Of a DNA stretch of 57,191 nt, positions 27,865-54,331 are shown one piece after another. The notes under the pieces are model-generated. The model did no database searches. It saw nothing but the letters and a program-made list of their open reading frames with translations, and was not told where the DNA came from. Positions within the stretch are counted from its first letter, which is position 1, and every line of letters begins with the position of its first letter. The position numbers and the translations under genes were made by a program. This stretch comes from Candidatus Omnitrophota bacterium. Lineage in GTDB: Bacteria; Omnitrophota; Gorgyraeia; 1-14-0-20-64-10. Location of the stretch: NCBI GenBank assembly GCA_023248155.1, contig JAHFFE010000002.1, positions 197,673 to 254,863 on the forward strand, in the 5' to 3' direction.

Positions 27865-30800
27865 TTGTACCGCTTTTTTGCGGGCTTAATAATCCTTTCG
27901 CTAATCCTGCCGCCGCAGTCTGCCTGGGCTCTCCGCGCGGTCTCTGCGAAAGAATCGGCCGGCCTGAAACAGCTCGCCTCCGGATTGGAGGAGAGGATTG
28001 GTTCTCCGGATTCCGACGCTACTGATGCCGAGTTGCTTCGTCAGCTGGATAGTCATCCTCAAACGGATTCCGCCGGACATCCTTACATGAAGACCCTCAC
28101 AGATTTCCATTCGGCTGTGGCGGAACCGCTGTTGAAAAGAAACTCAGGTTTAACAGATTTAGACCGGGACCGCCTGATAAAAACGGTTCTGCCGGGGTTC
28201 AGAGGAGAGATCCGGTTGTTTGATTTAAGTTTTCTGGTGGTTCCCGTCCGCCTGAACACCGATGGATCGATTGACATCGCGCGCCAGGTTCTTGAGCAGG
28301 CGCCGGCCGATCTGTTAATCAATCTGTTTACAAGCTACGACACGGCGGCGCTTCTGCGCTGGGCGGAAATAAACTTGAAGCAAGTGACGCCGTCACCGGC
28401 CATCGGCCGTTTGGAGCGGTTTGTCGCCGGAGGCGCCGATCGCCAAGCAAAGAAAAAAAAGACAAGCCGTCCTTCGGAACCAAAATCCCGGCCGGCGGAT
28501 ACGCTTCCCGCGGCGGAGCAGTTGACTACGGATCTTTTCCTGGGAGATGGGGTAGATTTGGCGGATACGCTTTCCTCCGCCACGCTGGAACTCGGTTTGC
28601 AAGCGCTGCTAAGAGATTCTGATTTGCCGGAACCGCCGCCCGCCGCGGCGGCCGAGCCGGCGTTGCCGCCGCCGGTACCCGGGACGGTGATCAGTTCCTC
28701 TGGACAATTAAAAACGGAAATGGCGCGCCGCGTCCGGGATCTCCATGCCGGAATAATCCCGGACAATATGGTGGTAATGACCGGCAACGGTTTCGACCAG
28801 GACCAGATCAAAATCTCTGTTGGCGCTTTGCCGGGCGCGCCTATTCAGACCGAGGTATTGATTCTTCCGGGACTTTCTCAGCCGGGCGTGTTCCTGCCCG
28901 ACCCTAGAACCGGTTCCGCTTCATCCCTCCCATACCGGATTGTCTGGGATCCGAAGCCTGTTCTGGAGGCATTGAGAAAGAACGTTGTTTTAGAGGAAAT
29001 GAGGGGAATGATGCGGGGGGATATTCAGAGAGCGCAGGACAGCATGCCCTGGCTGAATCGGCTTCTCGATACCGCCGAGCGGCTGTTGGCCGATCAGGGT
29101 GAAGAAGCCCGGATTCAGAACGCCAGAGCGGCTCAGCCGAAGATCGATCAACTGCTGAAAGTTGTTTCGGAAAAAGAAGAGGAGTTTTATCGGCTCTACG
29201 GCCGGTTATCGAGCGTGCTGATCGAGCTGAAAGAACAGGCCGATGAAAATGGCGAAATCCCAAGTGAGTTGGCCCAGGCCCGTTTACAGGAGTTGGCCAC
29301 GCTGTTTTCGGCTTACCCGCGGGCCGAGTACGGCATTCTGGATATTGTCCGGACACTGCCGCAGCAAGATGCCGTATCGCTCCGCGATATTGAAAATGCG
29401 CTGTCGGGCACGAAGGTATTTCTTCAGCGGAATCATAAACAGGAGATTTCCGGCCAGCTTCCCGCCGAAATCATCCTGAATTTTTACCACGACGCGAAAC
29501 GGATTGCGAACAGGCGTTATCTTCAGCAATTGAAACTCCGTTTTCAAGCCGCCGGCGAGGACCCCTCCGACTCCGACCGGGAAGCTGTTTCTCAATTCGC
29601 GTTGGCGGTTTTGTCGGAGGAGACCGGCCATCTGATTTCTAATTGGATATCGAGCAGCCAGGATCGCGCAGGATCGCCGGCCCACCCTCTGCCGGTTTCC
29701 GTGCTGGGCGTGGGGTTTCTCAACGCTCAAAACCAGATGCGATTTATTCCGGGCGGGTTAGTGGAGTACGACATTCCGGCGCAAAGAGAGTTCCATTGGT
29801 CGGCGGACCGGGTTCTTCCCTCCTATCAGGCCGGCGACCGGATCGTGCTGATGCTTCCTTCGCATACCGGCGGGCTGACCCAGAATCAGTTCCACGCGTT
29901 CTTTGAGGGTTGGTTTTACCTGATGAACGAGAATCCGGAGATTCCCGAAATTCTGCTGGCGATCGCCGAAGAAGACGGATCGATCCGTTTGTTACGGCCG
30001 CGCATTCCCGAGCGAGGCAAAGAGGCCTGGGCCACCTTGGCCCGTATTTCAAATGAAATCAACGCCTGTTATCAAACTTCCGCGGAATGGATCAGCCGGA
30101 TGAAAAGTTCCGGATCGAATGCCTGGCTGGTTAACAACATGCGCGCGGCCGGCTCTCTTTTGTCGGTTGCCCAGAAGGCGCAGTCAAGCGATATGTCCGG
30201 AAGAGAATGGTGGATTCGCCGGTTCCGGGTCTCGGAACTCTTTCTCGCTGAGGTTTCTTCTCTTTTTGGGCCGGATGCCGCAGAGGCCGTCAGGGAACAG
30301 TGGAAGGCCGATCCTCGGCACGCAAAAACATTAGAAGATTTGCGTGACCGGCTTAACCTTCCGGATATCGAACAGAAAAGGCCCAGAGAAGTTGCCGCGA
30401 TTCGCCAGCGGGTCAGTTACATCGGCCGAACACCGGAAGATCTCGGTTATGTTTTCGCACCGTTGATTGATTTGGCGGTGGCCGTTGTTGAGGAACGGCA
30501 GGGGGTCGACCTGTTGAACACCCCCTGGATGTTTGAAGAGGTTCCGCTGTTTCCGAATGAGCCGAAACCGGAACAAAAGAAAAAAGATTGGTTTGCCGAA
30601 ACCTGGGCTCTATGGAAGAAAGAAGACCGGTTTCGAAAAAATCCAAGATTTGGCAAGGCAGAAGATGCCGAGCCATTTGCCCGAACCTGGGTGGCGGAGC
30701 GGGTCGCCAAAGCGGTTGATGGGAAAGATCCTGAATTTAAATGGATCGATTTTTCCAAAGCGCTGGAAGCCCACCGGAAGCAGGAGGCCCGGCGCCGGGA

Positions 30801-33800
30801 AGAGATGCGCCAGCGCGTGGAGCAGATGAAATCAGCCGCTGTTACGGCCGCGTCTCCTGAGTCGACCCCTGCTCAACAGACGGAGACGCTGGAACAGTGG
30901 GGCGTTTTGTCCGCCGAATTGACCTCTTCAGAAAGAGCGGAAGTCGAACCGGCGCTGGCCCCGGCGGCCCAGCGGCTGACGCGGCCGCATGGCGCCTGGG
31001 CGCTGGCCGGTTGGGCGCTTAATCATGGGCTGTTTGAACCGGAGTTGCCGGTTTCCAAACTGTTGACTCGGTTGGCATCGCAGTTTCCAACCGGTTCAAA
31101 AATCCGAGACCATGTTTTGATGCGCAGAAATATCGCAGACTTTAATGAAAAAGAAGCTGAGCGAAAAAGCCGCGACGGATCCTCATCGGCTTCGGTTGTT
31201 CCGGCAAAAAATCAAGTTCGGGTTCCTTCGGAAACGCTCGCCGATCTCCTGTTGCTGGCCGAGCAACAGTTGACCGATCTGGACCGCCTGCTTCAGCCAT
31301 TTCCAGAACAACAAGCGGTTATCCGGGAACAGCGCCATTGGGTGCGCAACCTCTGGACAGTGGAAGAGGTGGCTCGGTTGGGCCGCTCGGGCGTCGCTGT
31401 TGACGCCGGTTCGATTCGGATTACTTTCGGCTATTTGGATCGGTTTTCCGCTGATCTGGAACCGGATTTGTTGGAGGCCGTTCATCGATTATCGGGGAGA
31501 TCGGTCCGGCGATGGGTGGATCTCGATCAGAAAAGGATTCATGCGGCTGTTTCCGAATCGATGGCTGCCGGCGATATGCAGGCCGCCTATGCCGATTTGC
31601 TGGCATTGGATCAAACAATGGCAGCTGACGCCCAGATGCTTCGCCAACAGGGCTTTACTCAGGGGGCTTCTGTTTTGGAAACAGCGCGCGTTTCTCTGGC
31701 AATGGCGCTGGCGGCCACCGAAGGGATTCAGAAGAGCGAAGCTCTGGCGAGCCGAGTGACCGCCGATAGCGGTACCGCCGTTCATGCCGAATTGGAAGTC
31801 AACCAGCGGCTTCGTATTCAAGCTGGCCTGGGCTGGATCAGCCGCCTGAACGAAGCCCGCCGCCGCTTGCTGGACCGGTTCTCCGGGGAAGTCGAGCGGA
31901 CCGCTCGCGACCGAATGGCCTCTGTCAATTCGCTTTCCTTTGAACAGGCGGAGGCGCTAAATCGGTCGATCCAGGAAGGAATGGCGTCTCTATCCGAATT
32001 TTCCGACCTGGCTGGCCGCAGGACCGCGCTCTCGGAACTTCGTCAGCAGGTGCGCCGCCGCGCGCTGGCCAGCCCGCAGCAGCCGCCCGCGAAGGCCGCC
32101 CGATTTATTCTTGCGCAGGATGCGTTCCAGACGGCGTTAATCCAGGATAAGGATGTTCGCGCCTGGCTTCGTTCCGTGGCGGAAGGAGATTCCCCAAAAA
32201 ACACAGGAGTTCTTTTACCTCGCGTGACTCGCCAGAGAGCGAAGGGTTCCGGCATTACACAGGAATTCTACACGGCGGTGGAAAATCTGATGAACCCGTC
32301 CGCACCGGAGGCTGTTACCCCTGAAACGATTGTGGAACCAGAAACACCGCCGGAGTCATCAGCTATTTCCACGGAATCAGCGGCGATTGTTTCGGAGCCG
32401 GAACCCGAGCCGCCCGTAGTCATCGTTGCGCCGGTAGTACCCGAAATTTCATCGGCTGCCGTGGAACCGGTTGTGGTGCAAGAACTGGTGCCGGAGCCTG
32501 TTGTAACATCGGAACCGGAATCGCCCCCGGTTGTCATCGTATCGGCGCCCATTGTTGCCGTGCCGGTTTCTACAGCCGTTCTTCCCGCGTCCGAAACCAG
32601 GTGGAAATCCCAAGAAGTTACACTGTTGCCGGACAATTATGTTCGGATAACAACTGCAGATCCAACAGACCTCGTGCAGATGGAGTTTGGCGGCAGGGAA
32701 TGGCTGGGAGTGAAGACTTACCCGGTAGAAAGGATTAATGTAGTCACCTCAAAACATCTGATTCCGGTATCCGGCAATGAACTAGCGGCGGCCGCGCTGG
32801 CAACGGGAGACTGGCGGCAGGCTGCTTCTCTGTTAGGACGGGAGGAAAAACACCAAAAGGCTCACGAAGGGGAGTGGGTTAACAACTCGGTCTTGGTCTA
32901 TGCAGGGGTTGATGACAGGTTCGGCATTGAAAATGAGATTTACTTTCTTTCGCCGGAAGATCTTCAACGGATGCGAGAGGATTTAACTGTGATCACCGGC
33001 AGCCGTAAAACCGGAGCTCTCGGAAAGCAGCGCTTTTTTGAAGCGAGGGCTGTACGGCTCACCGTTCGGTTTAACTCTGAAGATCGGGTTGGAAGCGTCA
33101 TACCGGTGACCGTATTTAACTCGCGTCAACAGTACGGCAGCCCGGTGATTGGAACGGCAGACTCGCTTGGACCGCTTCCGCAATTGCCCAAAACAGTTTC
33201 GTCCCAGATGGTTTCAGCTTCATCGCCTGTTTCGGTCTCTGCGGCTGCGGTTGTGTCCCTATCGCCTACAAAACAAAAACAGCTGTCGAGAGCCGAGCAA
33301 ATAGCGGAGAACAATAATCGGCTCGAGCAATCCCGTGATCCTCAAGAAGTAGCCCAGGTACTGCTTTCCGACGCGCGGTTTTCCCCGGCGATCGATGAGA
33401 ATTTCCGGGTTCCTTCCGAGGACGGCGCGGGCAATCTCCGGTCGTGGCTGGAATCGGTTCGAGATCACAAGACCGATGTTAATCTTGCCAGACAGCTTCA
33501 AAGAACCCGGGCGGCCGTTGATTCGGTGGAAGGCAACAACCGTCAGTTGTTTTATCAGGCATTCGACAGTATGCTTCCATTCGCGTTACAGGAAGCGGGT
33601 GCCAGCGCCGCCGAAAATACTTCCGCTGGTCTGGAAGAAAAGACAATGCCGGTGGCGCAGTTTGAAGAGGAGTACGGAAAACTTTTGGCTGGGCTGAACG
33701 CGGAACATTTGGCCGACCTGAAACACGCGGGCGCCGACTCGGTTATCGTGATTCCGCTGACCGGACAACTGCCGCTTTATGTACAGGGATCGGATTTGTT

Positions 33801-34110
33801 GAAGGCTGTTCGCGATGAGTTTGCCGGCAAACTGGGTGGCGACCGGTTCGCTCCGGAATTAATTACCGAAACTATTGCGTGGCAGAAAATTGGATTGGTC
33901 TTGAAAGATGAAACGCTGGATGAACTCCCATTAAATCCAAACGCACTCCCTATCAGGGACAGTTCCGCTGATAAAATCAATGAGCTGGACCCCGTAGAAT
34001 TGTTGCTGGAGATTTTTAAATCCCATTTGCCGTCCGATTCCGTCCATATGGGTGAAATGCTGTTGACCGATCAATCGGGCCAAACCTATCTGGTTTTACT
34101 TTCCGCATGA
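27865..34110 (+). CDS. giant exported protein P1 (2,081 aa), AGxEE-delimited family, no recognisable catalytic domain
   Basis: Uninterrupted 6.2-kb ORF. Signal peptide ...LPPQSAWA|LRAVS and leader ending in SGLEE (27979-27993). A Pro/Glu/Val linker lies around 32290-32590. AGLEE (33625-33639) precedes a 156-aa terminal module. Confidence 0.8.
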   Translation: MYRFFAGLIILSLILPPQSAWALRAVSAKESAGLKQLASGLEERIGSPDSDATDAELLRQLDSHPQTDSAGHPYMKTLTDFHSAVAEPLLKRNSGLTDLDRDRLIKTVLPGFRGEIRLFDLSFLVVPVRLNTDGSIDIARQVLEQAPADLLINLFTSYDTAALLRWAEINLKQVTPSPAIGRLERFVAGGADRQAKKKKTSRPSEPKSRPADTLPAAEQLTTDLFLGDGVDLADTLSSATLELGLQALLRDSDLPEPPPAAAAEPALPPPVPGTVISSSGQLKTEMARRVRDLHAGIIPDNMVVMTGNGFDQDQIKISVGALPGAPIQTEVLILPGLSQPGVFLPDPRTGSASSLPYRIVWDPKPVLEALRKNVVLEEMRGMMRGDIQRAQDSMPWLNRLLDTAERLLADQGEEARIQNARAAQPKIDQLLKVVSEKEEEFYRLYGRLSSVLIELKEQADENGEIPSELAQARLQELATLFSAYPRAEYGILDIVRTLPQQDAVSLRDIENALSGTKVFLQRNHKQEISGQLPAEIILNFYHDAKRIANRRYLQQLKLRFQAAGEDPSDSDREAVSQFALAVLSEETGHLISNWISSSQDRAGSPAHPLPVSVLGVGFLNAQNQMRFIPGGLVEYDIPAQREFHWSADRVLPSYQAGDRIVLMLPSHTGGLTQNQFHAFFEGWFYLMNENPEIPEILLAIAEEDGSIRLLRPRIPERGKEAWATLARISNEINACYQTSAEWISRMKSSGSNAWLVNNMRAAGSLLSVAQKAQSSDMSGREWWIRRFRVSELFLAEVSSLFGPDAAEAVREQWKADPRHAKTLEDLRDRLNLPDIEQKRPREVAAIRQRVSYIGRTPEDLGYVFAPLIDLAVAVVEERQGVDLLNTPWMFEEVPLFPNEPKPEQKKKDWFAETWALWKKEDRFRKNPRFGKAEDAEPFARTWVAERVAKAVDGKDPEFKWIDFSKALEAHRKQEARRREEMRQRVEQMKSAAVTAASPESTPAQQTETLEQWGVLSAELTSSERAEVEPALAPAAQRLTRPHGAWALAGWALNHGLFEPELPVSKLLTRLASQFPTGSKIRDHVLMRRNIADFNEKEAERKSRDGSSSASVVPAKNQVRVPSETLADLLLLAEQQLTDLDRLLQPFPEQQAVIREQRHWVRNLWTVEEVARLGRSGVAVDAGSIRITFGYLDRFSADLEPDLLEAVHRLSGRSVRRWVDLDQKRIHAAVSESMAAGDMQAAYADLLALDQTMAADAQMLRQQGFTQGASVLETARVSLAMALAATEGIQKSEALASRVTADSGTAVHAELEVNQRLRIQAGLGWISRLNEARRRLLDRFSGEVERTARDRMASVNSLSFEQAEALNRSIQEGMASLSEFSDLAGRRTALSELRQQVRRRALASPQQPPAKAARFILAQDAFQTALIQDKDVRAWLRSVAEGDSPKNTGVLLPRVTRQRAKGSGITQEFYTAVENLMNPSAPEAVTPETIVEPETPPESSAISTESAAIVSEPEPEPPVVIVAPVVPEISSAAVEPVVVQELVPEPVVTSEPESPPVVIVSAPIVAVPVSTAVLPASETRWKSQEVTLLPDNYVRITTADPTDLVQMEFGGREWLGVKTYPVERINVVTSKHLIPVSGNELAAAALATGDWRQAASLLGREEKHQKAHEGEWVNNSVLVYAGVDDRFGIENEIYFLSPEDLQRMREDLTVITGSRKTGALGKQRFFEARAVRLTVRFNSEDRVGSVIPVTVFNSRQQYGSPVIGTADSLGPLPQLPKTVSSQMVSASSPVSVSAAAVVSLSPTKQKQLSRAEQIAENNNRLEQSRDPQEVAQVLLSDARFSPAIDENFRVPSEDGAGNLRSWLESVRDHKTDVNLARQLQRTRAAVDSVEGNNRQLFYQAFDSMLPFALQEAGASAAENTSAGLEEKTMPVAQFEEEYGKLLAGLNAEHLADLKHAGADSVIVIPLTGQLPLYVQGSDLLKAVRDEFAGKLGGDRFAPELITETIAWQKIGLVLKDETLDELPLNPNALPIRDSSADKINELDPVELLLEIFKSHLPSDSVHMGEMLLTDQSGQTYLVLLSA

Positions 34111-37100
34111 GGAAGATATCCGTTTTATTACTGGTCGCGTTTCTGGCCAATTCTATTCCTGCGTACGCATTGCGCGTCGAGCAGCCGGAACATCCTGCTT
34201 CCCAATTCACTCTGGCGCGACGACTTAATGACTCTTCCGGGTTGGAAGAAGTCAAACCTCTGTGGACCACTGATCTGGGAAAAAACCGGATTTGGCAAAC
34301 GAGTTTACTGCCTGGAGCCCAACGCCGGATCGCGGCCATCACAACAACATTTCTTCATATCGGAGATCTTCAGGAATCACCGGTGCCAGCGTTGAATTTG
34401 AAGACGGTTTCTTTGCAACTAAAGTCGTCCGAAAGTTATCGAGGCATGGTCGTCGGCCCTGTCACCGATTCCGGCAATCAATTTCTAGCCATGGGATCAA
34501 CCAGCGGCAGAGTGGTCGTCCGCGACCTGAATTCCGAGGATGCTCCTACTGTTGTTTTAGGCGACACCAGGAGTTTTCAGGCCAGCGGCAGTGTGGCGAT
34601 TGATCCCGACGGAAAAACTGTATTTGTCACAGGAATAAATTCTCGGGTTCACGCCTGGAATATGGAGACGCAGACAGCGGTTCCCAATCATCCGACAGCT
34701 TCTTTTTTTGAGCCGGACTCCAATGAAGCGAAATTCATTCAGGACTCGGACAAGCGGTTGACGGCGCTCACGGGCAAAAGCCAGATTCAGATATGGGATT
34801 CGCGAGATCAGACCGGATGGCGGTGGCGGCCGTCTAAGTTAGGGGATTTGTCTGTTTCGCAATTCAGCCGCACCGGAAAATTGATCGCGGTTGCTCAGAA
34901 CAATGTTATTCATCTTTTTCCCACGGATGACCGGGATAGAGTCAGGACTCTTAAAGAGGCGCGAATGGGGAAAGAAATAACCAGCCTTGCCTTCAGTCCT
35001 GATTCCGAGTATTTGATTGCGGGGGACAAACGGGGCATTCTTCACATGTGGAATATTGCGAGTTCGCGCGCGACGGAATCCAACGCCCAAATTCAGGCGC
35101 ACGAGGGGCCGATCTCTTCGTTGTTTTTTTATACCGACAAACTATCGGGCCGTACCGCCCTGGTTTCGTCCGGCCATGACGGCAATGTCAAAGCGTGGGA
35201 CTTGGCCGCCTTGATTTCCGCCGGGCTGGAAGAAGATCTGCCGGATGAATTAGTGAGGGCGACTTTTTCGGGGGAAAGAGTTCCTGTGCGGGTTCTCGAT
35301 CTGGCGAGGGATAGGCCGTTCTTCAACGCGGTTTACACCGCGCCCGATGAACAAGTTAAAGGGTTTGTCCCCATCGCTCGTCTTTTTCATGATCCTGGAG
35401 AGCGAATGCGAGTCAACCAAAAATGGGACCGTCTAATGGCCAACGGTGATGAGCCGATCATGGCCCGGGTTGATTTGCAGGGCGGAGAGTTGCATTTTTA
35501 TCCCGATCTGGAGCTGAACGCGCTGGACAGCGCGCTGAATCGCTTACTGACCGATGTGGAAAAGATGGTTGGCGCATCTCCTCTTGGTCTGCCTGCTCAG
35601 GTAGTTAAGCGGGTCACCGGAGGGAAAGGGGCCGAGGTCCTCTATCGGCTCGAAGATGGCAGTGGCCGCGGGGGGCGCGGCTACCTAACAGTTGCTGGAG
35701 ACTACTCCAACTGGCTCCAGCAGCAAATCGGACATGAGATCCGCGTCACTCCGGTAGGGGTCGACCGCGACAGGAGCGAACGGCAGGTGATTTTCCGGCC
35801 CGCCGGATTGCCGTTGAACAAAGGTGCTTTGCTGGAGCAGAAACTGCTTGAGAGATCGGTGCCATCCGATGAAATTGAGAGCTTTCTTGATCGGCAGTTA
35901 CTTCAGGACAGGGAACTGCCGAAACTGTTGATCCCGATTTACGAGCATAGCCGTTCCCGCGTATGGAGAAATATGACGCGTTCGCACCGGCTTGCGGTTT
36001 TGCGCTGGCTGGCAGGCAGAAGCGATTCCGCCGATGCCGACCTGGCCGGCTGGTTGTTCCACATGTTTGCTCGGGCCTCGAAGGATCCAATGCATGGGCG
36101 GACCATCCAGGCCTGGGCTCTGCGCGGCATGGCGGGTGCCGCTCGAGATGACGCGCAAACGGAAACCGCGCGGCAAAGCGTCGAAGCGTGGTTTCAGCGG
36201 ACGCCTCTTCCCGAACCGAAACACACGGCGATTCTGGATCCGGTCGTTTATGAATTGTTCGGGTGGCCCCAAGATGCCTACGCGCTTTCTTTGGATGTCC
36301 AAGCCCGTTTCTCCGCGGGCCAGGAAGAAAACACCGCGGCCTGGGACGCTCTGCAGGACAAGATCAATAAGGAGACTCCAATCAAAGTGCGTATTGGGGA
36401 GGTTCTCCACGCCAGTAAAAGTGTAGCCATCCGTTATAGCCATGATGGAGAAGATCTTCCTGGAGTAATGCCTTTTCCTGCTATAGAAAACCTTCCATCA
36501 TCTTACTTGGCGGATTTGTTCTTGCTTCAAAAAGGGCAGGAAATCGATGTTCTTCCAAAACAGATTATCATCGACGACTTAAACCGGAAGCAATTCACTG
36601 CTTTTGTGGGAATTGCTGAATTTGATTTTCTGGGTCAGCGCCTGCAGGCGATACGAGAAATTCAGCGGGCTGCGGCCAGTGGTGTGGAAATTGAAATGGA
36701 ATTATTAGGAGTAGTGAATAAAGAAAGAGGAGTTGTTGCATTCAAATATCAATCGTCTGCTGGAGACGTTGTTTTTAAAACCTATTTAAGCCGGTTTTTC
36801 TCAACAGGAGTAACTGGAAATTATCCTGTTCACACTGTGAATAGTTGGGTAGCGTATCATACCGGGAAGAGTAAAAGAGTAAAAATTATTCCGACGGAAT
36901 TTCAAAAGGGCGGCTCTTACCCGCAGGTTTATTTCAAGGTGAACCTGTCTAACGAGGAGCTGAATCAGGAAATTTGGCATGGACGGGCTGAGCTTAAGCA
37001 GAAGTTTGATCAAGGTCATACGGTCGATTTCGGAGTGGAATGGTTTTCTCATAACAGCGTGCAAGTCTTTTATATTGGAGAACAGGGATGGGCGCGAACG

Positions 37101-38735
37101 ATTGTTCCCATGAGTTTGCTGTTTGATGCTTCAGAGCAGGTTTCGCTGGATGATACCCAGGAGTGGGTTTTGCGGAGTGTCGGTGATTTATGGAGAGGGG
37201 TTCCATTGGTTTCCAACAGAGACGGTTCGGGCTATCCTATCGTTGGTAATCCCAAATTTTCTGCTCGTCGGGCATTAGATCAAGTAGAACCGGCTCTTCA
37301 AGAACTGCGCGAAATGGCTGGACGATCGGTTCCTCCGGAAATTACGGTCATCGCGCGAATGGCCAATTCCAATGGATTGGCCGTTCTTTATGAAGGGAAA
37401 AATGGTTCATGGAAAAGAGGATATATTGATATTCGCGAGGTTAAGCCAACCGGCGCAAGTCCTGAACAGCGTCGCCAGTGGATGAATCAAGCCATAGACC
37501 GCAAAATCCACGTTACGCTCAGAGCAATCAAAACCCCAGAATCTTCCACCAAGGTATATTTTTCCTGGCCGGACCCTGAGCGGGATTTGCACGATGATTT
37601 TGGCGCCGGGATACTTGGCGCCGGCCAGGAAGAAGCGTATGCCTATATGGGTCGCTTTATGGATAAAGATCCTTTGGTGCGCCGTGCCGCGCGCAATGAA
37701 TTGTTGAGACGGGGTGACGCCGCCATACCGATTGTCATCGAACTGTTTGGATTGATAAGTAATTCGCGTATTGAAATGGTTCAAACCGTTCGCGTGCTGG
37801 CCGCCGAAAATCCTTCATTTATTTCTCATGTCATAGAGCCGATCCGCCGGCATCTGGATGGAGATCCTGAATGGGGAAGTTATACTCCTTTGCGTAACGC
37901 ATTAATGACGCTCTCTGCGCTGAGTCCGGAGCAGGCTTCTGACGCGATTCCGTTGCTGGAGCGGTTGTTATCGAGAGAAGAACGCAACCGTGTTATAGGA
38001 TTCGATCCCGACTTTAGCAATCAAGGACATACCTGGTCGGTCTGGATATTTCCCTATGCGTTTCAGGCAATTCGCCAACTTTCTTCCAGTCGATATAATG
38101 AAATGCTTGCCCAATGGACTGTTTATAAAAATTCTGGGCCGGAAATTTACAGATTCTTGGTGAATTCTATTCTTGAAAATCTTGAACGGATCGATCAGGA
38201 AAGAGGCATTCCGCACGCCGATGCGTGGGCTTCCACGGAACCGTTGATTGAGGCGGCTGTTCAGCCGGTGCATCAGCTGGCCGAGCAGGAAAAGCCGCTG
38301 ATTGTACTGGTTAGATCCGATATGGTGCGCGGCGATCGGGAGGATATTCCTTGGGAACAAATTTCCAGACAGTTGTCGGAATTAACCGGCTATCCGTCGA
38401 TTCAGGTCGATGATTCTTCTTCATCTCGAGTGTTGGGATATCAGAGAAGCGGAAATACAATCATTCATCTGGTTCCGGAAGATTTTCCTGCAGGGTATGA
38501 GCGTGTTATGCTCAACACGGTCCGCGTGAAATTAGGCACGAATAAGGATGTTGAGAGGGACATGTTTAGTATTGAGCTGCATGCGTTACCGGGTGTCATT
38601 ACCGGTGCGTTGGCGCACTGGCAACAGTATCAAAACGAAGCACAAATTCCTGTTTTTAACGCAATTCCATATATGAATTTGAACCTGCTTTCCGCGGCCG
38701 ATGTCTGGCAGATTCTCGCCGATCAGTTTGCGTAA
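34107..38735 (+). CDS. giant exported protein P2 (1,542 aa): WD40-like propeller + S1/OB-like repeats + HEAT-like region, AGxEE-delimited family
   Basis: An ATGA overlap joins it to the P1 stop. Signal peptide ...NSIPAYA|LRVE with SGLEE at 34236-34250. WD-type blades are visible (e.g. GHDGNVKAWDL, GDKRGILHMWNI). About six S1-like modules follow, with AG[LQ]EE at 35220, 36315 and 37620. Confidence 0.8.
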   Translation: MRKISVLLLVAFLANSIPAYALRVEQPEHPASQFTLARRLNDSSGLEEVKPLWTTDLGKNRIWQTSLLPGAQRRIAAITTTFLHIGDLQESPVPALNLKTVSLQLKSSESYRGMVVGPVTDSGNQFLAMGSTSGRVVVRDLNSEDAPTVVLGDTRSFQASGSVAIDPDGKTVFVTGINSRVHAWNMETQTAVPNHPTASFFEPDSNEAKFIQDSDKRLTALTGKSQIQIWDSRDQTGWRWRPSKLGDLSVSQFSRTGKLIAVAQNNVIHLFPTDDRDRVRTLKEARMGKEITSLAFSPDSEYLIAGDKRGILHMWNIASSRATESNAQIQAHEGPISSLFFYTDKLSGRTALVSSGHDGNVKAWDLAALISAGLEEDLPDELVRATFSGERVPVRVLDLARDRPFFNAVYTAPDEQVKGFVPIARLFHDPGERMRVNQKWDRLMANGDEPIMARVDLQGGELHFYPDLELNALDSALNRLLTDVEKMVGASPLGLPAQVVKRVTGGKGAEVLYRLEDGSGRGGRGYLTVAGDYSNWLQQQIGHEIRVTPVGVDRDRSERQVIFRPAGLPLNKGALLEQKLLERSVPSDEIESFLDRQLLQDRELPKLLIPIYEHSRSRVWRNMTRSHRLAVLRWLAGRSDSADADLAGWLFHMFARASKDPMHGRTIQAWALRGMAGAARDDAQTETARQSVEAWFQRTPLPEPKHTAILDPVVYELFGWPQDAYALSLDVQARFSAGQEENTAAWDALQDKINKETPIKVRIGEVLHASKSVAIRYSHDGEDLPGVMPFPAIENLPSSYLADLFLLQKGQEIDVLPKQIIIDDLNRKQFTAFVGIAEFDFLGQRLQAIREIQRAAASGVEIEMELLGVVNKERGVVAFKYQSSAGDVVFKTYLSRFFSTGVTGNYPVHTVNSWVAYHTGKSKRVKIIPTEFQKGGSYPQVYFKVNLSNEELNQEIWHGRAELKQKFDQGHTVDFGVEWFSHNSVQVFYIGEQGWARTIVPMSLLFDASEQVSLDDTQEWVLRSVGDLWRGVPLVSNRDGSGYPIVGNPKFSARRALDQVEPALQELREMAGRSVPPEITVIARMANSNGLAVLYEGKNGSWKRGYIDIREVKPTGASPEQRRQWMNQAIDRKIHVTLRAIKTPESSTKVYFSWPDPERDLHDDFGAGILGAGQEEAYAYMGRFMDKDPLVRRAARNELLRRGDAAIPIVIELFGLISNSRIEMVQTVRVLAAENPSFISHVIEPIRRHLDGDPEWGSYTPLRNALMTLSALSPEQASDAIPLLERLLSREERNRVIGFDPDFSNQGHTWSVWIFPYAFQAIRQLSSSRYNEMLAQWTVYKNSGPEIYRFLVNSILENLERIDQERGIPHADAWASTEPLIEAAVQPVHQLAEQEKPLIVLVRSDMVRGDREDIPWEQISRQLSELTGYPSIQVDDSSSSRVLGYQRSGNTIIHLVPEDFPAGYERVMLNTVRVKLGTNKDVERDMFSIELHALPGVITGALAHWQQYQNEAQIPVFNAIPYMNLNLLSAADVWQILADQFA

Positions 38736-38768: not shown

Positions 38769-38842
38769 GCGCTCGTAGCTCAGCTGGATAGAGCACTAGC
38801 CTCCGAAGCTAGGGGTCGCGCGTTCAAATCGCGCCGAGCGCG
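38769..38842 (+). tRNA. tRNA-Arg (anticodon CCG)
   Basis: Hand-folded cloverleaf. Acceptor stem is GCGCTCG/CGAGCGC. Anticodon arm is CTAGC-CTCCGAA-GCTAG. T-arm is GCGCG-TTCAAAT-CGCGC. Discriminator is G with no CCA, followed by TTTTTT. Confidence 0.9.
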
Positions 38843-38848
38843 TTTTTT

Positions 38849-45277: not shown

Positions 45278-45280
45278 CCG

Positions 45281-48333: not shown

Positions 48334-49676
48334 AAATTCATGTTTTAAGTTTGGGTTGCGCCCGCGCGCTGGTCGATTCGGAAGGATTGGCCGGCCTGCT
48401 GAAAGAAGCGGGGCACTCGCTCAGCCATGAACCGCAGTCGGCCGATTGCGTCGTCGTAAATACCTGCTCATTCATCCGCGAAGCCGAAGAAGAATCGGTC
48501 GCGACGATCCTCGATTTAGCCGAACTTAAAAAGACCGGAAAAATCCGCCGCCTTTATGTGGCCGGATGCCTTCCGCAAAAACGCCGCAATGAGAAAGAAG
48601 ATATGCTCTCGCTGCTGCCTGAAGTAGATGGCTTTCTGGGCCCCGGTGATCTCTCAAAACTGCCGATGCTGATCGAGCGGCAGGAATCGGGCAAGCCCGA
48701 CCGTTTTTTTGTGACGTCGCCGGTCCCGACCTTATTATTCGAGTCGACGGCGCCGCGCCAGCGGTTGACGCCCAAACATTTCGCTTATGTGAAAGTCTCT
48801 GAAGGCTGCGACCATGCCTGCACCTTCTGTTCCATTCCGCAGTTCCGCGGCGCGCACCGTTCACGGTCCATCGAAGATATTTCGGCCGAGGTTCGCCAGC
48901 TGGTTTCCGAAGGGGTAAAAGAATTCAACCTGATCGGGCAGGACAGCTCCTATTACGGCGCCGATATTTACGGCAAGCCGTGCCTGCCGAAATTGCTGCG
49001 CGCGCTTTCTGAGATTCCGGACGTGCGATGGATCCGTATTTTATACGCGCACCCGGCGCATGTGACCGACGATCTGATCGCCGCGATTCGCGACTGCAAG
49101 CCGGTCGTTAAATACATCGACATTCCGTTGCAGCATATCAACGACCGGTTGCTGCGCGCGATGCGCCGCGAAACCGACGGCGATTACATCCGCCGCCTGG
49201 TTCGCAAATTCCGCGAGCAGGTTCCCGGCATGGTGATCCGCAGTACGTTCATCGTCGGGTTCCCCGGGGAGACCGATGCCGATGCCGACGAGCTCGAGGC
49301 ATTTCTCGGCGAGGCCCGTTTCGAGAGGGTCGGCATGTTCCCGTTTTCACCGGAACCGAAAACACCGTCCGAGAAAATGGCGGAACAGGTTCCCGACGAC
49401 GTAAAGAAAAAACGGCTCGACCAGTTAATGCGCCGCCAGCAGGAGATTTCGTACAGCATTAATCAGGGCTGGATCGGCCGCGAGATGGAAGTGCTTATCG
49501 AGGAGCCCGATTCCGAAGACAAAACTCTTTTTATGGGCCGCAGCTATGCCGATGCGCCCGAGGTGGATGGACAGGTGTTCGTGAAATCACCGGCGCCGCT
49601 TGCGGTGGGCGAACTGGTCCGCGTGAAGATCACCGATGCGTATGAATACGATCTGTTCGGCGAGGTGATTCCGTAA
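48330..49676 (+). CDS. rimO: ribosomal protein S12 methylthiotransferase RimO (MiaB-family radical SAM)
   Basis: MTTase N-domain (LSLGCARALVDSE...NTCSFI), radical-SAM motif CDHACTFC and a C-terminal TRAM domain. Confidence 0.75.
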   Translation: MKIHVLSLGCARALVDSEGLAGLLKEAGHSLSHEPQSADCVVVNTCSFIREAEEESVATILDLAELKKTGKIRRLYVAGCLPQKRRNEKEDMLSLLPEVDGFLGPGDLSKLPMLIERQESGKPDRFFVTSPVPTLLFESTAPRQRLTPKHFAYVKVSEGCDHACTFCSIPQFRGAHRSRSIEDISAEVRQLVSEGVKEFNLIGQDSSYYGADIYGKPCLPKLLRALSEIPDVRWIRILYAHPAHVTDDLIAAIRDCKPVVKYIDIPLQHINDRLLRAMRRETDGDYIRRLVRKFREQVPGMVIRSTFIVGFPGETDADADELEAFLGEARFERVGMFPFSPEPKTPSEKMAEQVPDDVKKKRLDQLMRRQQEISYSINQGWIGREMEVLIEEPDSEDKTLFMGRSYADAPEVDGQVFVKSPAPLAVGELVRVKITDAYEYDLFGEVIP

Positions 49677-50251
49677 TGAATCTGCCGAACCAATTAACAC
49701 TGCTGCGCATCGTCCTCAGTTTTGTATTGATCGGCTGCATGCTGATGCCCGGCATTGGTTTTAAGACGGCGGCGGTGGTTGTTTTCGCGCTGGCGGCGTT
49801 GACAGATCTTTTAGACGGGAAATTGGCGCGCGAAAAAGGGCTGATCACCGATTTTGGAATTTTAATGGATCCGATCGCCGATAAAGTGCTGGTGCTCGGA
49901 TCGTTTATGGCGCTGATCCAGCTGGATATTGTTCCGGCCTGGATGGTGGTGCTGATTGCCATGCGCGAATTTTTGCTGACCGGCATCCGTCTGGTGGCGT
50001 TGAACCGCGGACAGGTTCTGGCGGCCGAGCGTTCCGGTAAGAATAAAACCGTGATGCAGATGGTGACGATCGCGCTGGCATTGATCTATTTGGCGCTGCG
50101 TGAAACAGGGTGGGGCGTTTCATCAGGTGCTGAGTCGATCCGGATGATTCGATCGGGGCTCGATTTATTTGTCTGGCTGACGATGATCTTAACCATCACC
50201 AGCGGCATCAGCTTCTTCTGGAATAACCGGAAAGTGATTCTCTCATTCTGA
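49676..50251 (+). CDS. pgsA: CDP-diacylglycerol--glycerol-3-phosphate 3-phosphatidyltransferase
   Basis: CDP-alcohol phosphatidyltransferase motif DLLDGKLAR...GILMDPIADK. Confidence 0.9.
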   Translation: MNLPNQLTLLRIVLSFVLIGCMLMPGIGFKTAAVVVFALAALTDLLDGKLAREKGLITDFGILMDPIADKVLVLGSFMALIQLDIVPAWMVVLIAMREFLLTGIRLVALNRGQVLAAERSGKNKTVMQMVTIALALIYLALRETGWGVSSGAESIRMIRSGLDLFVWLTMILTITSGISFFWNNRKVILSF

Positions 50252-50255
50252 AAAA

Positions 50256-50321
50256 ATGTCATTCCGAGATGGTACTTGCTCGGAATCTTAGATCCTGAGC
50301 AGAAACAATCTCAGGATGACA
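50256..50321 (+). repeat. two-hairpin repeat family C, copy 2
   Basis: ATGTCAT-[TCCGAG..CTCGGA]-ATCTTAG-[ATCCTGAG..CTCAGGAT]-GACA, located in the pgsA-pgpA spacer. Confidence 0.6.
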
Positions 50322-50341
50322 GCGTGGGGTGCCTGATCTCC

Positions 50342-50782
50342 ATGATTACAAAGATGATTGCCACATTCTTCGGGATTGGCTATTTTCCGGCTGCGCCGGG
50401 AACCGCCGCATCGGCGGTGGCGGCGTTACTGGCCTGGTTTGTTTTTGGGCTGCCATTGAATCCTCTAATCTTTCCTTTCTTTTTGGCCGCCATCGGAATT
50501 TGGAGTTCCGATTGTTTTTCGAAACAGATCAACCAAAAAGATCCGCACTGCATTGTGATCGACGAAGTCGCCGGCATGGCGCTGGCTGTTGCCGGACTGC
50601 CGCGCAGCTGGCAGGTTTACTTGGCTGCGTTTGTGCTGTTCCGTCTGCTCGATATTGTCAAGCCGGGCCCGATCCGGAGAGCGGAACAGCTTCCCGGAGG
50701 GTGGGGGATCATGACAGATGATCTTTTGGCCGGCCTGGCGGCGAACATGCTGATCCGCGGATTTTTGTTGTTCGCCCATTGA
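50342..50782 (+). CDS. pgpA: phosphatidylglycerophosphatase A
   Basis: FFGIGYFPAAPGTAAS...IVIDEVAGM...FRLLDIVKPGPI. I chose ATG 50342 as the start because the track's 50276 runs through repeat C. Confidence 0.8.
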   Translation: MITKMIATFFGIGYFPAAPGTAASAVAALLAWFVFGLPLNPLIFPFFLAAIGIWSSDCFSKQINQKDPHCIVIDEVAGMALAVAGLPRSWQVYLAAFVLFRLLDIVKPGPIRRAEQLPGGWGIMTDDLLAGLAANMLIRGFLLFAH

Positions 50783-50788
50783 AAAACT

Positions 50789-53700
50789 ATGATTTATATG
50801 CTAAAATTATTTAACAATAACATGTCTCGCCAGAATTTTTCTTTTGCCCGCTTTTTTGCGGCTTTATTAGCCGTTGCGCAGATCTTTTGCGTAACCGTGA
50901 CGCCTTCCTACGCGCTGCGCGCTGTTTCTCCGTCGGAATCTCGCCCTGATTTGCAAACCCGCCTCTCGGGGCAGGAAGAGCCAGTCAGGGTTTTTGACGC
51001 GTTTAGGCGGTCGGAGGTCAATCCGGAAATCGGGGCCCGCGTCGCAAATTTTCTGATTGGAACGGGCGCGCAAATGCGTGTAGCGCAGGTCGAGATGAAT
51101 CAAACTCTGCCCATTTATTCCAATCCGCACGACGAATATTATTTGATTCTGTCCGGCCGGGGGCTTCTTCAGACGGGCACTCTCGCCGGCAAGGTGGGCT
51201 CTGGAGATTTAATCCGGATTCCGGCCGGATCACCCCATACTATTACGGCTGTTGGCGAGGAATCTCTGACGCTGGCCTTTTTCTATCGGGGTTCGTACCA
51301 GAGAGCCTTGAGGCCGGAAGTTCCGGTTCTTTCCGGCGAAACGCCCGCCGGCCGCGGCCGCTATTTTCTGGAAATCGCCAAGCTCAATGGAGACAGCGAG
51401 AGTGAACTGTTTGTTGGAGAACGGCTCTCGATCCGTTTGTATCAAAAGCGGGGTCGCGTTAACCGTTCTTTTACTCCAGACCGCCAAACCCTCTTGTATG
51501 TAACGACAGGCGAAATGGAACTTGCATTCAATGCAAGTGGTCAACAGTTTTCGTTGAGAAAAGAAAGCGGAATAGTTATTCCGGCCGGCATGATTGTTCA
51601 TTTATCCGGTAAGCATAGTGCTCGCTTTCTTTTAATTTCTGCGTTGGATCGTTTGACGGTTGGAAATTATCGCGAACTTGCCGTGGTGTTGCAGCGTTAT
51701 CACGGCCTGCCGCTTGAAAATCCGCCGGCCAATTCTCCAGCGTATGAGCGCCTGCGCAGTTTGGATAATTATTCCGGCACCAATGGAATTTATCAGTTAA
51801 CAGCCGATCTTCAGGCGGCCAGGGATGCCGGATTATTGCGAATCACAAATCTTTTAGAACAGGACTTGAATCCCCAAAATTTCTACGATGGTTTGCCGGC
51901 ATCTATAAAACGCGATAGAGAATTTCCCGCTCCGAAACTGTCGTGGAAAGACTATTTCAACATTCAGGTTCTTTTGCGGAACTCTCCTGAGCTCTATCGA
52001 GACCCGGAGGGACTTCGAAAACTTGCGGATCAGCAAGAAATAGCACCGGCCGCACTTTGGCATACATTTCATTCCGAGTTTGGTGAACAACTTGGCTGGG
52101 GAGCTATCGCTCAATTCAGAACCGTTCGTCAAGCGGCGGCCACCGCCGGCATGGAAGAGGCGAAGGTGGAAGATTTCTTCGACGAGATTCCGGCGGCCGA
52201 TGCGAACGAGTTCAAGGTGGCAGTGATGGTGCCGGTCAGTGATGCCACGATTGATCGGCTCAGCAAAGAGGGGTATCACATCTACCGCATAAAACCTCAG
52301 AAGGAACCGCTGGGAATTATCGGCGCTGAGAGAACGCGCGCGCTCATTCAAAAAATAAACCCAGATTACCTGATGATCTTTGTGAATGATTCTGTCGATG
52401 AAGAACTTTTGAAGCCGGAGGTGACGCCGAATCTGAAAGGGATTGCCCACATGGGCCTTGGTTTTGGCAATATCACAAAAGCTGCGCGCAAACTTGCCGC
52501 TGAGCGGAAAATCCAGCTTTCCTATGCCGGTGATCCGAGGGTCAGCCGCAATGTGCTTTATAATGCCACTGCCGAGATGGCCGAAACACTGTTGCTGACC
52601 CGCTGGTATGATTTGCTCCGGAATGTCCATCCAAAGATTGGGGTTTTTTCTGAAGGCCAAATCTTGGGAGTTCAACTCCAGGCCTACATTGCCTCTGCCG
52701 GAGGAAATGTTTCCGAGTTAGAGCGGCGAGAGATTCAAGTAGCCGATTTGTTGTGGGCGCAGATGTTTCGGCAGATGAAGCGAGTCGATGCGGCGGTTGA
52801 GTTAGCTCGACAGGGCAAATTTCTCGGAGCAGGGAACGGGGCTGATCGCACGGTCCGAAATTATCAGCTGACAAGACAGCGGGAATTGGGAAAGGCGCCC
52901 AGCCTGGGAATGGTGGGATCTCTGACGATGATTCGCCGCTGGGCCTCGCTTGCCGCCACGCATGGTCTGGATGATCTCTATTATGCTGATCCCAGCGGCG
53001 ACCGGTTCCCGGAACGGGAGGCGTTTCAAATGGGTTTGTCCGTCGGAACTGTGGAGGAAGTGGCGCTGAGTTCCGATTTTCTGTTGCTGGCTCCGGGCAC
53101 GGGCACTGTTTTAACGGCGGATCTGCAGGTGGCTCAAGCGCTGTCCAGAAAGAATCCCGTTTTAAGAGTGGATCCTGCCCAATGGATCTGGACCGGCCCT
53201 GATCTGCAGCTGTTTCTGCCGGACCGGTCGTTGCAAAATCAAACCATCGGTTTTTACGGTTTGGGAACCATCGGCGGAACAGCGGCCTCATTTTTAAAAC
53301 GATTCGGCGCGAATATCATCGCCGTGGTTCGTCATCCCGACGATTACAGGTCCATTGGAGAACGGCTGAATGTCTCGTTTGTTTCTCCGGAACAGATCTG
53401 GCGGAAGGCGCGGCTGGTGTTGTTGTCTCTGCCTGCGGATGCGGGGCAGGTGGTGACGCCTGAGATTTTAGATGACCCAACGACAATCACGGAATTAATC
53501 GGCAACATCGGCCGTGGAGACGCGGTTGCGGGTACTCTTTCAGAAGAAGAAAGCTTCGTGCAGGCGTTGCTTAGAACCGGCAGGGCGTACTCCACGGATG
53601 TTCTTCCGAATGAAAAACTGGAATGGCAGAAACAGCCGTTGAGGGCGCTCGTAGAAAGCGGGCAGGCCATTGTGAGCTCTCATATTGCCAGCAACGCCGA

Positions 53701-54331
53701 GAACCCGCTGACAAAAATCAGCGTGCGCGGCTTGATGGAAGGCACCGCTGTGAACAACCTGCTGGTGATGCGGCATAATCAGTTGCAGCCTGGTGACCCC
53801 AGACCATTACCCAATCCGATTCCTGCGCCGGCCGGCCAGGAGGAAGTTGCTGCTGCGGAACAGCGGGTAGCGGCTGTTATCGATCAGCTTGTCAGAAAAT
53901 CGCAATTTTCCGTTAAGCAAAAGGTGGTAGCGATCGGTCCCAGCGTCTATCAATCAAAAGACTACGACTTCCTGCCGGCTTTTGTTGAAACATATTTTGG
54001 CCCTGTTCAAGAACGAATATTTTTTGATCCGGTGAATCCGCAGAACAGAGAATCTGTCTGGGATACTCAATTTGATTGGAATGCCGGTGACGGGGAATAT
54101 GGAAAACGGGTTGATTTGGTGAGCTATCTGGGGTCTAGCGATGAACAATCTGATTTTAATCGGTGGGCGCAAACTCACTTGCAGGTCAATTTTTCCACAT
54201 TGCATTGGCAAAAAGAGCCGGCGAAATTTTTGCATGAGCTGCTCAGGGAGCTGGCCCTTCCTTTCAACATCCTTTCTGTTAATGAGGATCAACAACTGCA
54301 GGCCGACCTGGAGCTTCTCGTTTCCTCTTAA
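50789..54331 (+). CDS. giant exported protein P3 (1,180 aa): tandem cupins + D-2-hydroxyacid-dehydrogenase-like NAD domain, AGxEE-delimited family
   Basis: Signal peptide ...VTVTPSYA|LRAVS with SGQEE at 50966-50980. Cupin motifs (HDEYYLILSGRG...IRIPAGSPH; LLYVTTGEMEL...VIPAGMIVH). AGMEE is at 52145. The Rossmann region has GLGTIGGTAASFLKRFGANIIAVVRHPD plus NIGRG, DVLPNE and SSH. AGQEE is at 53831. Met12 (50822) is an alternative start. Confidence 0.8.
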   Translation: MIYMLKLFNNNMSRQNFSFARFFAALLAVAQIFCVTVTPSYALRAVSPSESRPDLQTRLSGQEEPVRVFDAFRRSEVNPEIGARVANFLIGTGAQMRVAQVEMNQTLPIYSNPHDEYYLILSGRGLLQTGTLAGKVGSGDLIRIPAGSPHTITAVGEESLTLAFFYRGSYQRALRPEVPVLSGETPAGRGRYFLEIAKLNGDSESELFVGERLSIRLYQKRGRVNRSFTPDRQTLLYVTTGEMELAFNASGQQFSLRKESGIVIPAGMIVHLSGKHSARFLLISALDRLTVGNYRELAVVLQRYHGLPLENPPANSPAYERLRSLDNYSGTNGIYQLTADLQAARDAGLLRITNLLEQDLNPQNFYDGLPASIKRDREFPAPKLSWKDYFNIQVLLRNSPELYRDPEGLRKLADQQEIAPAALWHTFHSEFGEQLGWGAIAQFRTVRQAAATAGMEEAKVEDFFDEIPAADANEFKVAVMVPVSDATIDRLSKEGYHIYRIKPQKEPLGIIGAERTRALIQKINPDYLMIFVNDSVDEELLKPEVTPNLKGIAHMGLGFGNITKAARKLAAERKIQLSYAGDPRVSRNVLYNATAEMAETLLLTRWYDLLRNVHPKIGVFSEGQILGVQLQAYIASAGGNVSELERREIQVADLLWAQMFRQMKRVDAAVELARQGKFLGAGNGADRTVRNYQLTRQRELGKAPSLGMVGSLTMIRRWASLAATHGLDDLYYADPSGDRFPEREAFQMGLSVGTVEEVALSSDFLLLAPGTGTVLTADLQVAQALSRKNPVLRVDPAQWIWTGPDLQLFLPDRSLQNQTIGFYGLGTIGGTAASFLKRFGANIIAVVRHPDDYRSIGERLNVSFVSPEQIWRKARLVLLSLPADAGQVVTPEILDDPTTITELIGNIGRGDAVAGTLSEEESFVQALLRTGRAYSTDVLPNEKLEWQKQPLRALVESGQAIVSSHIASNAENPLTKISVRGLMEGTAVNNLLVMRHNQLQPGDPRPLPNPIPAPAGQEEVAAAEQRVAAVIDQLVRKSQFSVKQKVVAIGPSVYQSKDYDFLPAFVETYFGPVQERIFFDPVNPQNRESVWDTQFDWNAGDGEYGKRVDLVSYLGSSDEQSDFNRWAQTHLQVNFSTLHWQKEPAKFLHELLRELALPFNILSVNEDQQLQADLELLVSS

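Follow-up and report, generated by a model that had tools for sequence, protein, structure and literature searches.

A short conserved peptide at the junctions between modules of long, leader-bearing proteins of a Candidatus Omnitrophota bacterium

The giant proteins of Candidatus Omnitrophota have been proposed to undergo post-translational cleavage, on account of embedded C39 and S8 domains, the C39 domains being reported as common in these proteins; the cleavage points were stated as not known, which blocks even a computational segmentation (West-Roberts et al. 2023, bioRxiv 10.1101/2023.11.21.568195). In complete Omnitrophota genomes, 'multi-enzyme metabolic cluster' proteins have been described (2026 preprint 10.64898/2026.06.07.730766). 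An open question, explicitly stated as such, is whether the giant or long multi-enzyme open reading frames (ORFs) of these bacteria yield a single polypeptide or many products. The DNA analysed here is a stretch of 57,191 nucleotides from a Candidatus Omnitrophota bacterium (assembly GCA_023248155.1, contig JAHFFE010000002.1, positions 197,673 to 254,863), referred to as the window. It encodes three long proteins, P1, P2 and P3, in which a pentapeptide of the form [SA]G[LQM]EE, the junction peptide, recurs nine times, mostly at recognizable module boundaries. The junction peptide provides the first concrete and testable candidate cut or docking points for the giant multi-enzyme proteins of Omnitrophota. 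Such peptides are described neither by West-Roberts et al. 2023 nor in the 2026 preprint, from the text of which the words 'motif', 'linker', 'cleavage' and 'polyprotein' are absent, and literature searches that combined the peptides with Omnitrophota, or that were aimed at secreted polyproteins of bacteria in which cleavage motifs are conserved, returned nothing relevant. Within the literature searched, the junction peptide appears to be undescribed so far.

P1, P2 and P3 resemble the Omnitrophota giants in that many unrelated, often cytoplasm-type enzyme domains are carried by one ORF behind an N-terminal signal peptide, and the named relatives of P3 modules are Omnitrophota proteins. Cupin and 2-hydroxyacid dehydrogenase domains are tiled behind a signal-peptide-like segment in P3, and a WD40 domain together with modules of no known family in P2. 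With 2081, 1542 and 1180 residues, respectively, P1, P2 and P3 stay below the 10,000 residues by which a 'giant' is defined and are small versions of the architecture; they further differ from the giants in that a scan of the window proteins and of seven relatives gave no peptidase domain of the C39 or S8 type. A second point of comparison is offered by viral polyproteins, in which a short peptide is repeated at each junction of unrelated modules (for example the sites of picornavirus 3C and potyvirus NIa-Pro). A short conserved peptide is likewise found at junctions between the modules of P1-P3, and like the viral sites it is the same throughout one genome but changes from lineage to lineage. 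In contrast to the viral case, P1-P3 are encoded on a cellular chromosome with housekeeping neighbours, they have a Sec-type leader and a conserved C-terminal module that is not a protease, no protease was found in the window, and their cleavage is putative.

A six-frame regular-expression scan of the window returned nine matches to [SA]G[LQM]EE, all of them within the ORFs of P1, P2 and P3, and none in any other reading frame. The coordinates agree exactly with those of an earlier reading of this DNA (the original prediction), which had also placed all copies in three long ORFs. From the residue composition 0.05 matches are expected in the 4,803 residues of P1, P2 and P3 together, and at most two were found in any of 20,000 shuffled versions, in line with the earlier estimate that well under one copy should occur by chance. 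The remark that the motif is missing from the other proteins of the window was borne out as well: the 35 other genes (12,643 residues) contain no match, also when the pattern is relaxed to [SATGV]G[LMQAV]E[EQD] (Fisher p = 9e-6). Ten G-x-E-E tetrapeptides are present in P1-P3, and nine of these are junction peptides. Since the pattern was defined post hoc, it was validated on independent proteins (see below).

All three genes, with their leaders, junction peptides and modules, are on the forward strand. P1 (27865..34110) is composed of a leader, a module of 1882 residues without an internal motif and a terminal module of ~160 residues. Its leader (27865..27978) has a hydrophobic segment, the sequence A-W-A-L-R and a spacer of 15 residues, and is separated from the cargo by SGLEE (27979..27993, residues 39-43); AGLEE (33625..33639, residues 1921-1925) is preceded by sequence rich in small residues and stands before the terminal module, at a putative boundary. 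P2 (34107..38735) has a leader (34107..34235; MRK, a hydrophobic segment, A-Y-A-L-R and a spacer of 21 residues), a WD40 propeller, two modules of no known family and a terminal region. Here SGLEE (34236..34250, residues 44-48) lies between the leader and the WD40 module, and AGLEE (35220..35234, residues 372-376) is found right behind the last WD40 blade; two copies of AGQEE (36315..36329, residues 737-741; and 37620..37634, residues 1172-1176) lie at putative boundaries. In P3 (50789..54331) a leader (50789..50965; hydrophobic segment, S-Y-A-L-R and a spacer) is followed by a part with two cupins and a helical module, by a split 2-hydroxyacid-dehydrogenase-like module and by a C-terminal module. 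SGQEE (50966..50980, residues 60-64) separates the leader from the cupin module, AGMEE (52145..52159, residues 453-457) the helical from the dehydrogenase-like module, and AGQEE (53831..53845, residues 1015-1019) the latter from the C-terminal module, a conserved alpha/beta module of ~160 residues (53846..54328) that in many relatives occupies the extreme C-terminus with a junction peptide always directly before it.

The original prediction had every copy at a module boundary. Six of the nine sites have independent support for this. The first copy in each of P1-P3 lies 15-21 residues past the A-x-A-L-R end of the signal peptide; the P2 copy at residue 372 starts one residue beyond the last match to the Pfam WD40 families, which extend to residue 371; and at the two internal copies of P3 homology blocks begin or end (around residue 453, with starts at 449-461 and ends at 439-456; around residue 1015, with ends at 1019-1025 and starts at 1004-1013), and the residues there are unstructured or part of a linker in AlphaFold models. 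The remaining three (residue 1921 of P1, residues 737 and 1172 of P2) are without independent boundary evidence because the modules there have no homologues. Of the domain names used earlier, 'S1-like' has no Pfam match and 'HEAT' only a faint one to HEAT_2 (E = 0.07), just downstream of the last junction peptide of P2.

The N-termini of P1-P3 have positive charge, one hydrophobic segment and the sequence A/S-[W/Y]-A-L-R, and no further transmembrane-like segment was seen in the three proteins except a Val/Pro-rich stretch at residues 1554-1576 of P1. Cysteine is nearly absent (one residue in P1, none in P2, and one in P3, in the leader). P1 ends and P2 begins within the same four nucleotides (ATGA, 34107-34110), stop overlapping start, and translational coupling of the two genes is probable. 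P1 has no match in Pfam or NCBIfam and no homologue except itself among 5.8e9 proteins; beyond the WD40 module, P2 is an orphan without a Pfam match, for which the homologue search brought only WD40 proteins. The Pfam families matched by P3 are Cupin_2, 2-Hacid_dh and 2-Hacid_dh_C, the dehydrogenase-like domain being split by a large insertion. The true start of P3 may be at Met12 (nucleotide 50822), which aligns with Met1 of its closest relative P0115; neither the product from 50789 nor that from 50822 is present in the gene-position collection. Scans of the GTDB species genomes with P1 and with an alignment of the dehydrogenase module gave no match.

P3 was compared with 1.84 billion representative proteins in an exhaustive HMMER search. 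The matches come module by module, and the alignments end at motif positions. The cupin module (residues ~53-295) and the helical module (~288-456) were found in other long proteins, the dehydrogenase-like module (~451-1022) in about a dozen long proteins, and the C-terminal module (~1011-1179) at the extreme C-terminus of other proteins. Overall, the modules recur in shuffled order across ~20 other long proteins, most of which begin with the same leader (…A-[H/W/Y/F]-A-L-R) and have x-G-x-E-E between their modules. In 24 related proteins (P1-P3 and 21 others; 31,352 residues) [SATG]G[LMQAV]EE occurs 72 times, versus 1.4 expected. The ends of BLASTP homology blocks are at a median distance of 21 residues from the nearest motif, versus 119 residues when the motif positions are randomised, and the median was never below 75 residues in 500 randomisations. 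An artefact of chance or composition might be suspected where a pattern is defined after inspection of the data, as was done here, but this explanation is refuted by the shuffled sequences, by the replication in the 21 other proteins, which are the source of most of the 72 copies, and by the coincidence of motif positions with homology-block ends.

The closest relative of P3, P0115, is 52% identical overall and 57% in the dehydrogenase-like block. The two proteins share four collinear blocks: from the leader to SG[Q/M]EE, from GQEE (where the block begins in both) to the end of the helical module, from [T/S][A/T]GMEE to AGQEE (block 993-1555 of P0115, which begins at TGMEE), and from [A/S]GQEE to the C-terminus; the leaders are orthologous. 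P0115 has three modules more than P3, each inserted exactly between two copies of the motif. These alignments show 'motif plus module' to be the unit that is gained, lost and shuffled in evolution. The minimal members P0119 and P0121 consist of leader, motif, one cargo, motif and C-terminal module, and the motif therefore flanks the cargo even where there is nothing else to link.

Related long genes were also found in three metagenome loci from JGI, between murJ-uvrC and prfB-secA-lnt. The long ORFs contain at least 7 (in an ORF that reaches the end of its locus), 8 and 11 copies of the relaxed motif, with 8-11 in loci L005 and L006, and no strict copy is present in the other real genes of these loci. 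In the window, the related proteins and the loci examined, the junction peptide was found to be confined to long proteins with a predicted leader. A conserved peptide at the junctions of unrelated modules, specific to leader-bearing long proteins, was the core of the original prediction, and it extends well beyond the window. In L005 (13956-15032) and L006 (13192-14274) the long gene lies immediately 5' of prfB and secA, in the conserved order murJ-uvrC-long gene-prfB-secA-lnt; its linkage to secA may be a coincidence.

The related proteins have further features in common. Cysteine makes up 0.14% of the 24 family proteins versus 0.89% of the other window proteins, and the few cysteines are often in the leader; this depletion would be consistent with real export of normally cytoplasmic enzymes. 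The C-terminal residue is alanine in 17 of the 24, and one idea is that a tail-specific (PDZ) protease could recognise the family C-terminus. In the leader, the L-R past the presumed signal-peptidase site is conserved and is often followed three residues on by glutamine (A-L-R-x-x-Q). Tandem junction peptides, 10-25 residues apart, are seen directly after the A-x-A-L-R leader in P0142, P0139, P0118 (L006 8216-8272), P0183 and P0140.

In the more distant matches of P3, a different short peptide is strongly over-represented, and one such peptide dominates per protein: RSEAR in P0131 (6 copies), RSE[AM]R in P0177 (12 copies), [GAS]AR[LM][AS] in P0149 (22 copies) and SP[AS]G in P0148 (10 copies). 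The cupin module of P0131 that matches P3 (214-448) has RSEAR on both flanks, at 213 and 453. P0135, P0137 and P0130 are also among the long modular proteins with other junction peptides, and xDGG and S[AS]ASS are possible further peptides. All relatives that come with an organism name (P0149, P0130 and P0137) are from Candidatus Omnitrophota, to which the modular protein family probably belongs. Within a genome the same peptide recurs in proteins that are otherwise unrelated, and it differs between lineages; from this we infer a trans-acting, genome-encoded reader.

The original prediction had further held that the peptide is conserved and not a DNA repeat, and quoted codons that differ between sites. 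The codons are correct, the nine 15-mers are all distinct, and the synonymous positions track the background codon usage. Glutamate is encoded by GAA in 13 of the 18 positions at the nine sites, compared with 61% over the three long ORFs, and all four glycine codons are used. In the GC-rich relatives of L005 and L006 (64% GC), where GAG accounts for 69% of Glu, the peptide is mostly written with GAG and GGG, the preferred codons of those genomes. Since the codons at the sites follow the usage of each genome, it is the peptide that is conserved. A signal in the nucleic acid of which the peptide is a by-product, either an internal Shine-Dalgarno-like GGAGG for initiation or pausing or a recombination site by which modules are shuffled, would account for the fairly uniform GCC GGG GCG GAG GAG (which contains GGAGGAG) of the GC-rich relatives and for the motif copies that bound module gain and loss; by back-translation, several of the other junction peptides can also be encoded with GGAGG. 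However, only two of the nine window sites contain GGAGG, the other seven being GAA GAA or GAA GAG, there is no in-frame start codon at a consistent downstream distance, and the real genes of the window mostly lack a strong Shine-Dalgarno sequence. Together with the distinct 15-mers and the background codon choice in both genomes, this makes such a signal very improbable, and internal Shine-Dalgarno sequences, internal initiation and DNA recombination sites were rejected for this organism. A repeated domain was ruled out separately, as the segments between the motifs are without significant mutual similarity. From the codon usage, selection on the junction peptide as a peptide, not as DNA, is established, and the interpretation given in the original prediction is partly supported.

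In a logo of 82 sites, information is present at six positions only, [AST]-[ASTG]-G-[LMAQ]-E-[EQ], with glycine in 100% of the sites and A, S, T or G directly before it in 94%. The 15 residues upstream are enriched in proline (11% versus 6% background) and also in small residues, and the residues downstream resemble the background. By this comparison, the pentapeptide of the window is the local form of a punctuation peptide, [A/S/T]-[A/S/T/G]-G-[L/M/Q/A/V]-E-[E/Q], between independently evolving modules, and the proteins that host it are modular, poor in cysteine and provided with a predicted Sec leader.

Structures were predicted with AlphaFold 2 (AF2) for two modules of P3. The model of the dehydrogenase-like module, calculated with an alignment of five sequences, is of moderate confidence (predicted local distance difference test (pLDDT) of 64); its N-terminal AGMEEAK is coil (residues 1-7, of which residues 1-4 have a pLDDT below 50), and the final 20 residues, ending in AGQEE, are unstructured. 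For the C-terminal module, the model included the 30 residues before it (pLDDT 82, predicted template modelling score 0.73) and has an alpha/beta fold preceded by a Pro-rich linker for which the pLDDT is low (below 50 in residues 1-20, with block means of 37, 41 and 51); A-G of AGQEE is coil, and the first helix starts at Q. In these models the junction peptide is predicted at the transition from linker to helix, outside the folded core, and the motif is placed at the end of a Pro- and small-residue-rich linker and at the start of the next module. Placement in linkers instead of folded cores, which the original prediction had expected, thus holds for residues 453 and 1015 of P3. P0117 and P0118, however, have three motif-like copies within the C-terminal module of ~150 residues, including one that is only ~12 residues short of the C-terminus; it is therefore unsafe to regard every copy as a linker site.

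These models bear on a structural role without any reader, in which the glycine ends the flexible linker and x-E-E caps the N-terminus of the next helix, so that the folding of neighbouring modules is insulated; uniformity within a genome would then come from modules copied together with their own N-terminal cap. The confident model of AGQEE, with A-G as coil and a helix from Q, and the linker-like sequence upstream are what this explanation would predict, and the motif-like copies of P0118 may map to helix starts in the terminal module, although that alignment is weak (hhalign probability 0.75%). We nevertheless consider a purely structural cap decidedly unlikely: helix starts are ubiquitous, yet no copy is found in the 12,643 residues of the other window proteins; orthologous modules vary at the third residue of the peptide; the motif residues are modelled as coil in the dehydrogenase-like module; other lineages use SP[AS]G and RSEAR, which are not helix caps; and the unrelated orphan modules of P1 and P2 bear the same peptide as P3.

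We favour, with slightly less than even confidence, the reading that the junction peptide is the recognition site, and probably the cleavage site, of an endopeptidase that segments exported precursors. The precursor would be exported through Sec and then cut by the endopeptidase at every junction peptide; this would release the cargo modules and take off the short pro-segment at the N-terminus as well as the conserved C-terminal module, and the outcome would be a cellular polyprotein. A candidate scissile bond that is compatible with the data lies after the invariant glycine. Proline often follows E-E directly (SGQEE-P in P3, and several relatives), which argues against a cut right after E-E. 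An endopeptidase is favoured because unrelated enzyme modules recur in different combinations in different proteins, because the motif flanks the cargo even in single-cargo proteins, because the first copy comes just past the signal peptide and the last just before the conserved terminal module, and because the pattern mirrors that of viral polyproteins.

Two known types of cleavage site resemble the peptide in part. Double-glycine leaders are cleaved by peptidases of family C39 (of the bacteriocin or peptidase-containing ATP-binding transporter (PCAT) type) behind a small residue and glycine at P2-P1. The junction peptide has an invariant glycine after a small residue, a likeness that counts only if the cut follows the glycine; it lacks the conserved hydrophobic pattern at -4, -7 and -12, there being no information upstream of -1, it is internal and stands behind a Sec signal instead of replacing it, and acidic residues are conserved after the glycine. 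Neither the window nor any of the seven relatives that were scanned has a C39 domain. The sites of signal peptidase I follow the -3, -1 rule, and [AST]-x-G, with a proline a short way upstream and acidic residues early in the 'mature' part, is reminiscent of their c-region; the internal junction peptides differ in that no hydrophobic h-region precedes them, and the leader has an A-x-A site of its own.

Sequence tools cannot separate a protease site from an attachment site or from a docking or linker element, and several observations count against cleavage. No peptidase or transpeptidase gene is present in the window and no peptidase domain in P1-P3 (Pfam, NCBIfam), and no peptidase is encoded beside the homologous genes in L005 and L006, where the neighbours are housekeeping genes; a Peptidase_M48 module is present in one relative, P0183. 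Cleavage itself is inferred from sequence. GLEE, RSEAR, ARLA and SP[AS]G share no chemistry, and a single conserved protease family would therefore need large shifts in specificity. The copies of P0117 and P0118 within the last ~150 residues fit a binding or structural role better than cleavage, and x-E-E as the first helical turn in the AF2 model makes a purely structural role as a helix start possible. Finally, the enzyme modules are of cytoplasmic type (an NAD-dependent dehydrogenase, a kinase-like ATPase and, by eye only, a methyltransferase-like module), which makes an exported location surprising.

Several of these points would be met if the junction peptide served for recognition or docking without being cleaved, and a partner (a chaperone, a factor for export or assembly, a scaffold, or an enzyme that modifies the Glu pair) bound to it on the intact, beads-on-a-string protein. 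Docking accounts equally for the uniformity within a genome and the specificity of lineages, it accounts for the multiple copies in or near the C-terminal module of P0117 and P0118 and for the tandem copies in many leaders (P0142, P0139, P0118 and P0183), and it agrees with the finding that no protease is encoded nearby in the window or in L005 and L006. We rate it as unlikely, since the single-cargo proteins P0119 and P0121 still carry the motif on either side of their cargo, the modules, being unrelated enzymes, do not evidently have to be tethered, and no candidate partner was identified.

On a wider scale, the favoured cleavage by an endopeptidase could be part of a code: Omnitrophota and their relatives would use lineage-specific junction peptides throughout the proteome, cut by co-evolving endopeptidases, up to the giants of 10-100 thousand residues. 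We regard this generalization as rather doubtful at present; if true, it would explain how functional products arise from giant ORFs, and these products could be predicted from sequence. The junction peptide could prove to be a new system common to the phylum. It already supplies a rule by which long proteins can be split into parts for structure prediction, sites to look for by N-terminomics in metaproteomes already at hand, a route to the reader via co-variation across complete genomes, and a picture of module shuffling as the exchange of motif-bounded cassettes. Two uncharacterised items are defined along with it, the leader …A-[HWYF]-A-L-R and the C-terminal module of ~160 residues.

Relatives of the C-terminal module were found in P0115, P0134, P0138, P0139, P0141-P0143, P0146 and P0183, with …G-x-E-E-V-A-A-A-x-x-R-V… at the start and …L-L-[IV]-x-A at the end; a word-indexed protein search with the alignment of the module returned two proteins. 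It has no Pfam family, no significant sequence match in the PDB and no PDB fold match, and was on these grounds rejected as a protease or a known sorting domain. The terminal module of P1 was likewise rejected as a member of this family (hhalign probability only 2.8%), and the terminal module of P0118 scored 0.75% in the same comparison. Secreted multi-domain precursors that are cut into several products are represented by RgpA, Kgp and HagA of Porphyromonas gingivalis. Like P3, these have an N-terminal signal and a conserved C-terminal domain, and the recurrence of the P3 module at the C-terminus of P0115, P0134, P0139, P0141, P0142 and P0183 is reminiscent of the cargo of the type IX secretion system. 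The gingipain precursors differ in that their own protease domain does the cutting, at simple Arg or Lys sites, whereas the junction peptide has a six-residue consensus; moreover, the C-terminal domain of type IX cargo is a beta-sandwich, and the P3 module is alpha/beta, without a structural match or a Pfam family.

The genes around the long ORFs are housekeeping genes, with ligA and an xerC-like gene upstream of P1, and rbfA, an nrnA-like gene, truB, ribF, rpsO, pnp, ftsK, rodZ, miaB, pgsA and pgpA downstream of P2; there is no peptidase among these neighbours. An ankyrin-repeat protein (19816..20709, forward strand) has a leader that by eye and by alignment is like those of the long proteins (…PARAVNPGAADASDSERLRILEE), with R-I replacing S-G, and may be a small member of the system whose junction peptide has degenerated. 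There are two tRNA genes (Rfam RF00005), at 23062-23136 and 38769-38842, of which the second is just 3' of P2. A non-coding element of 281 bp is present in two copies that are 93.6% identical (14101-14381 and 23146-23426), one upstream of a transaldolase-like gene and one between a tRNA gene and a Cu/Zn superoxide dismutase gene. It has terminal inverted repeats of ~24 bp (AGAACCGGTCTCGTAAATCC… / …GGATTTACGAGACCGGTTCT) and no Rfam match, and looks like a miniature inverted-repeat transposable element. Directly 3' of P3, two adjacent genes (54477-55613 and 55610-56257) encode secreted-looking proteins without a Pfam match and with near-identical N-termini (MKLSMFLTRVMVIGAAS.LAVS.GYADG); this gene pair was found in the same place in contigs of two further samples or runs (ERZ27276474 and SRR14366787).

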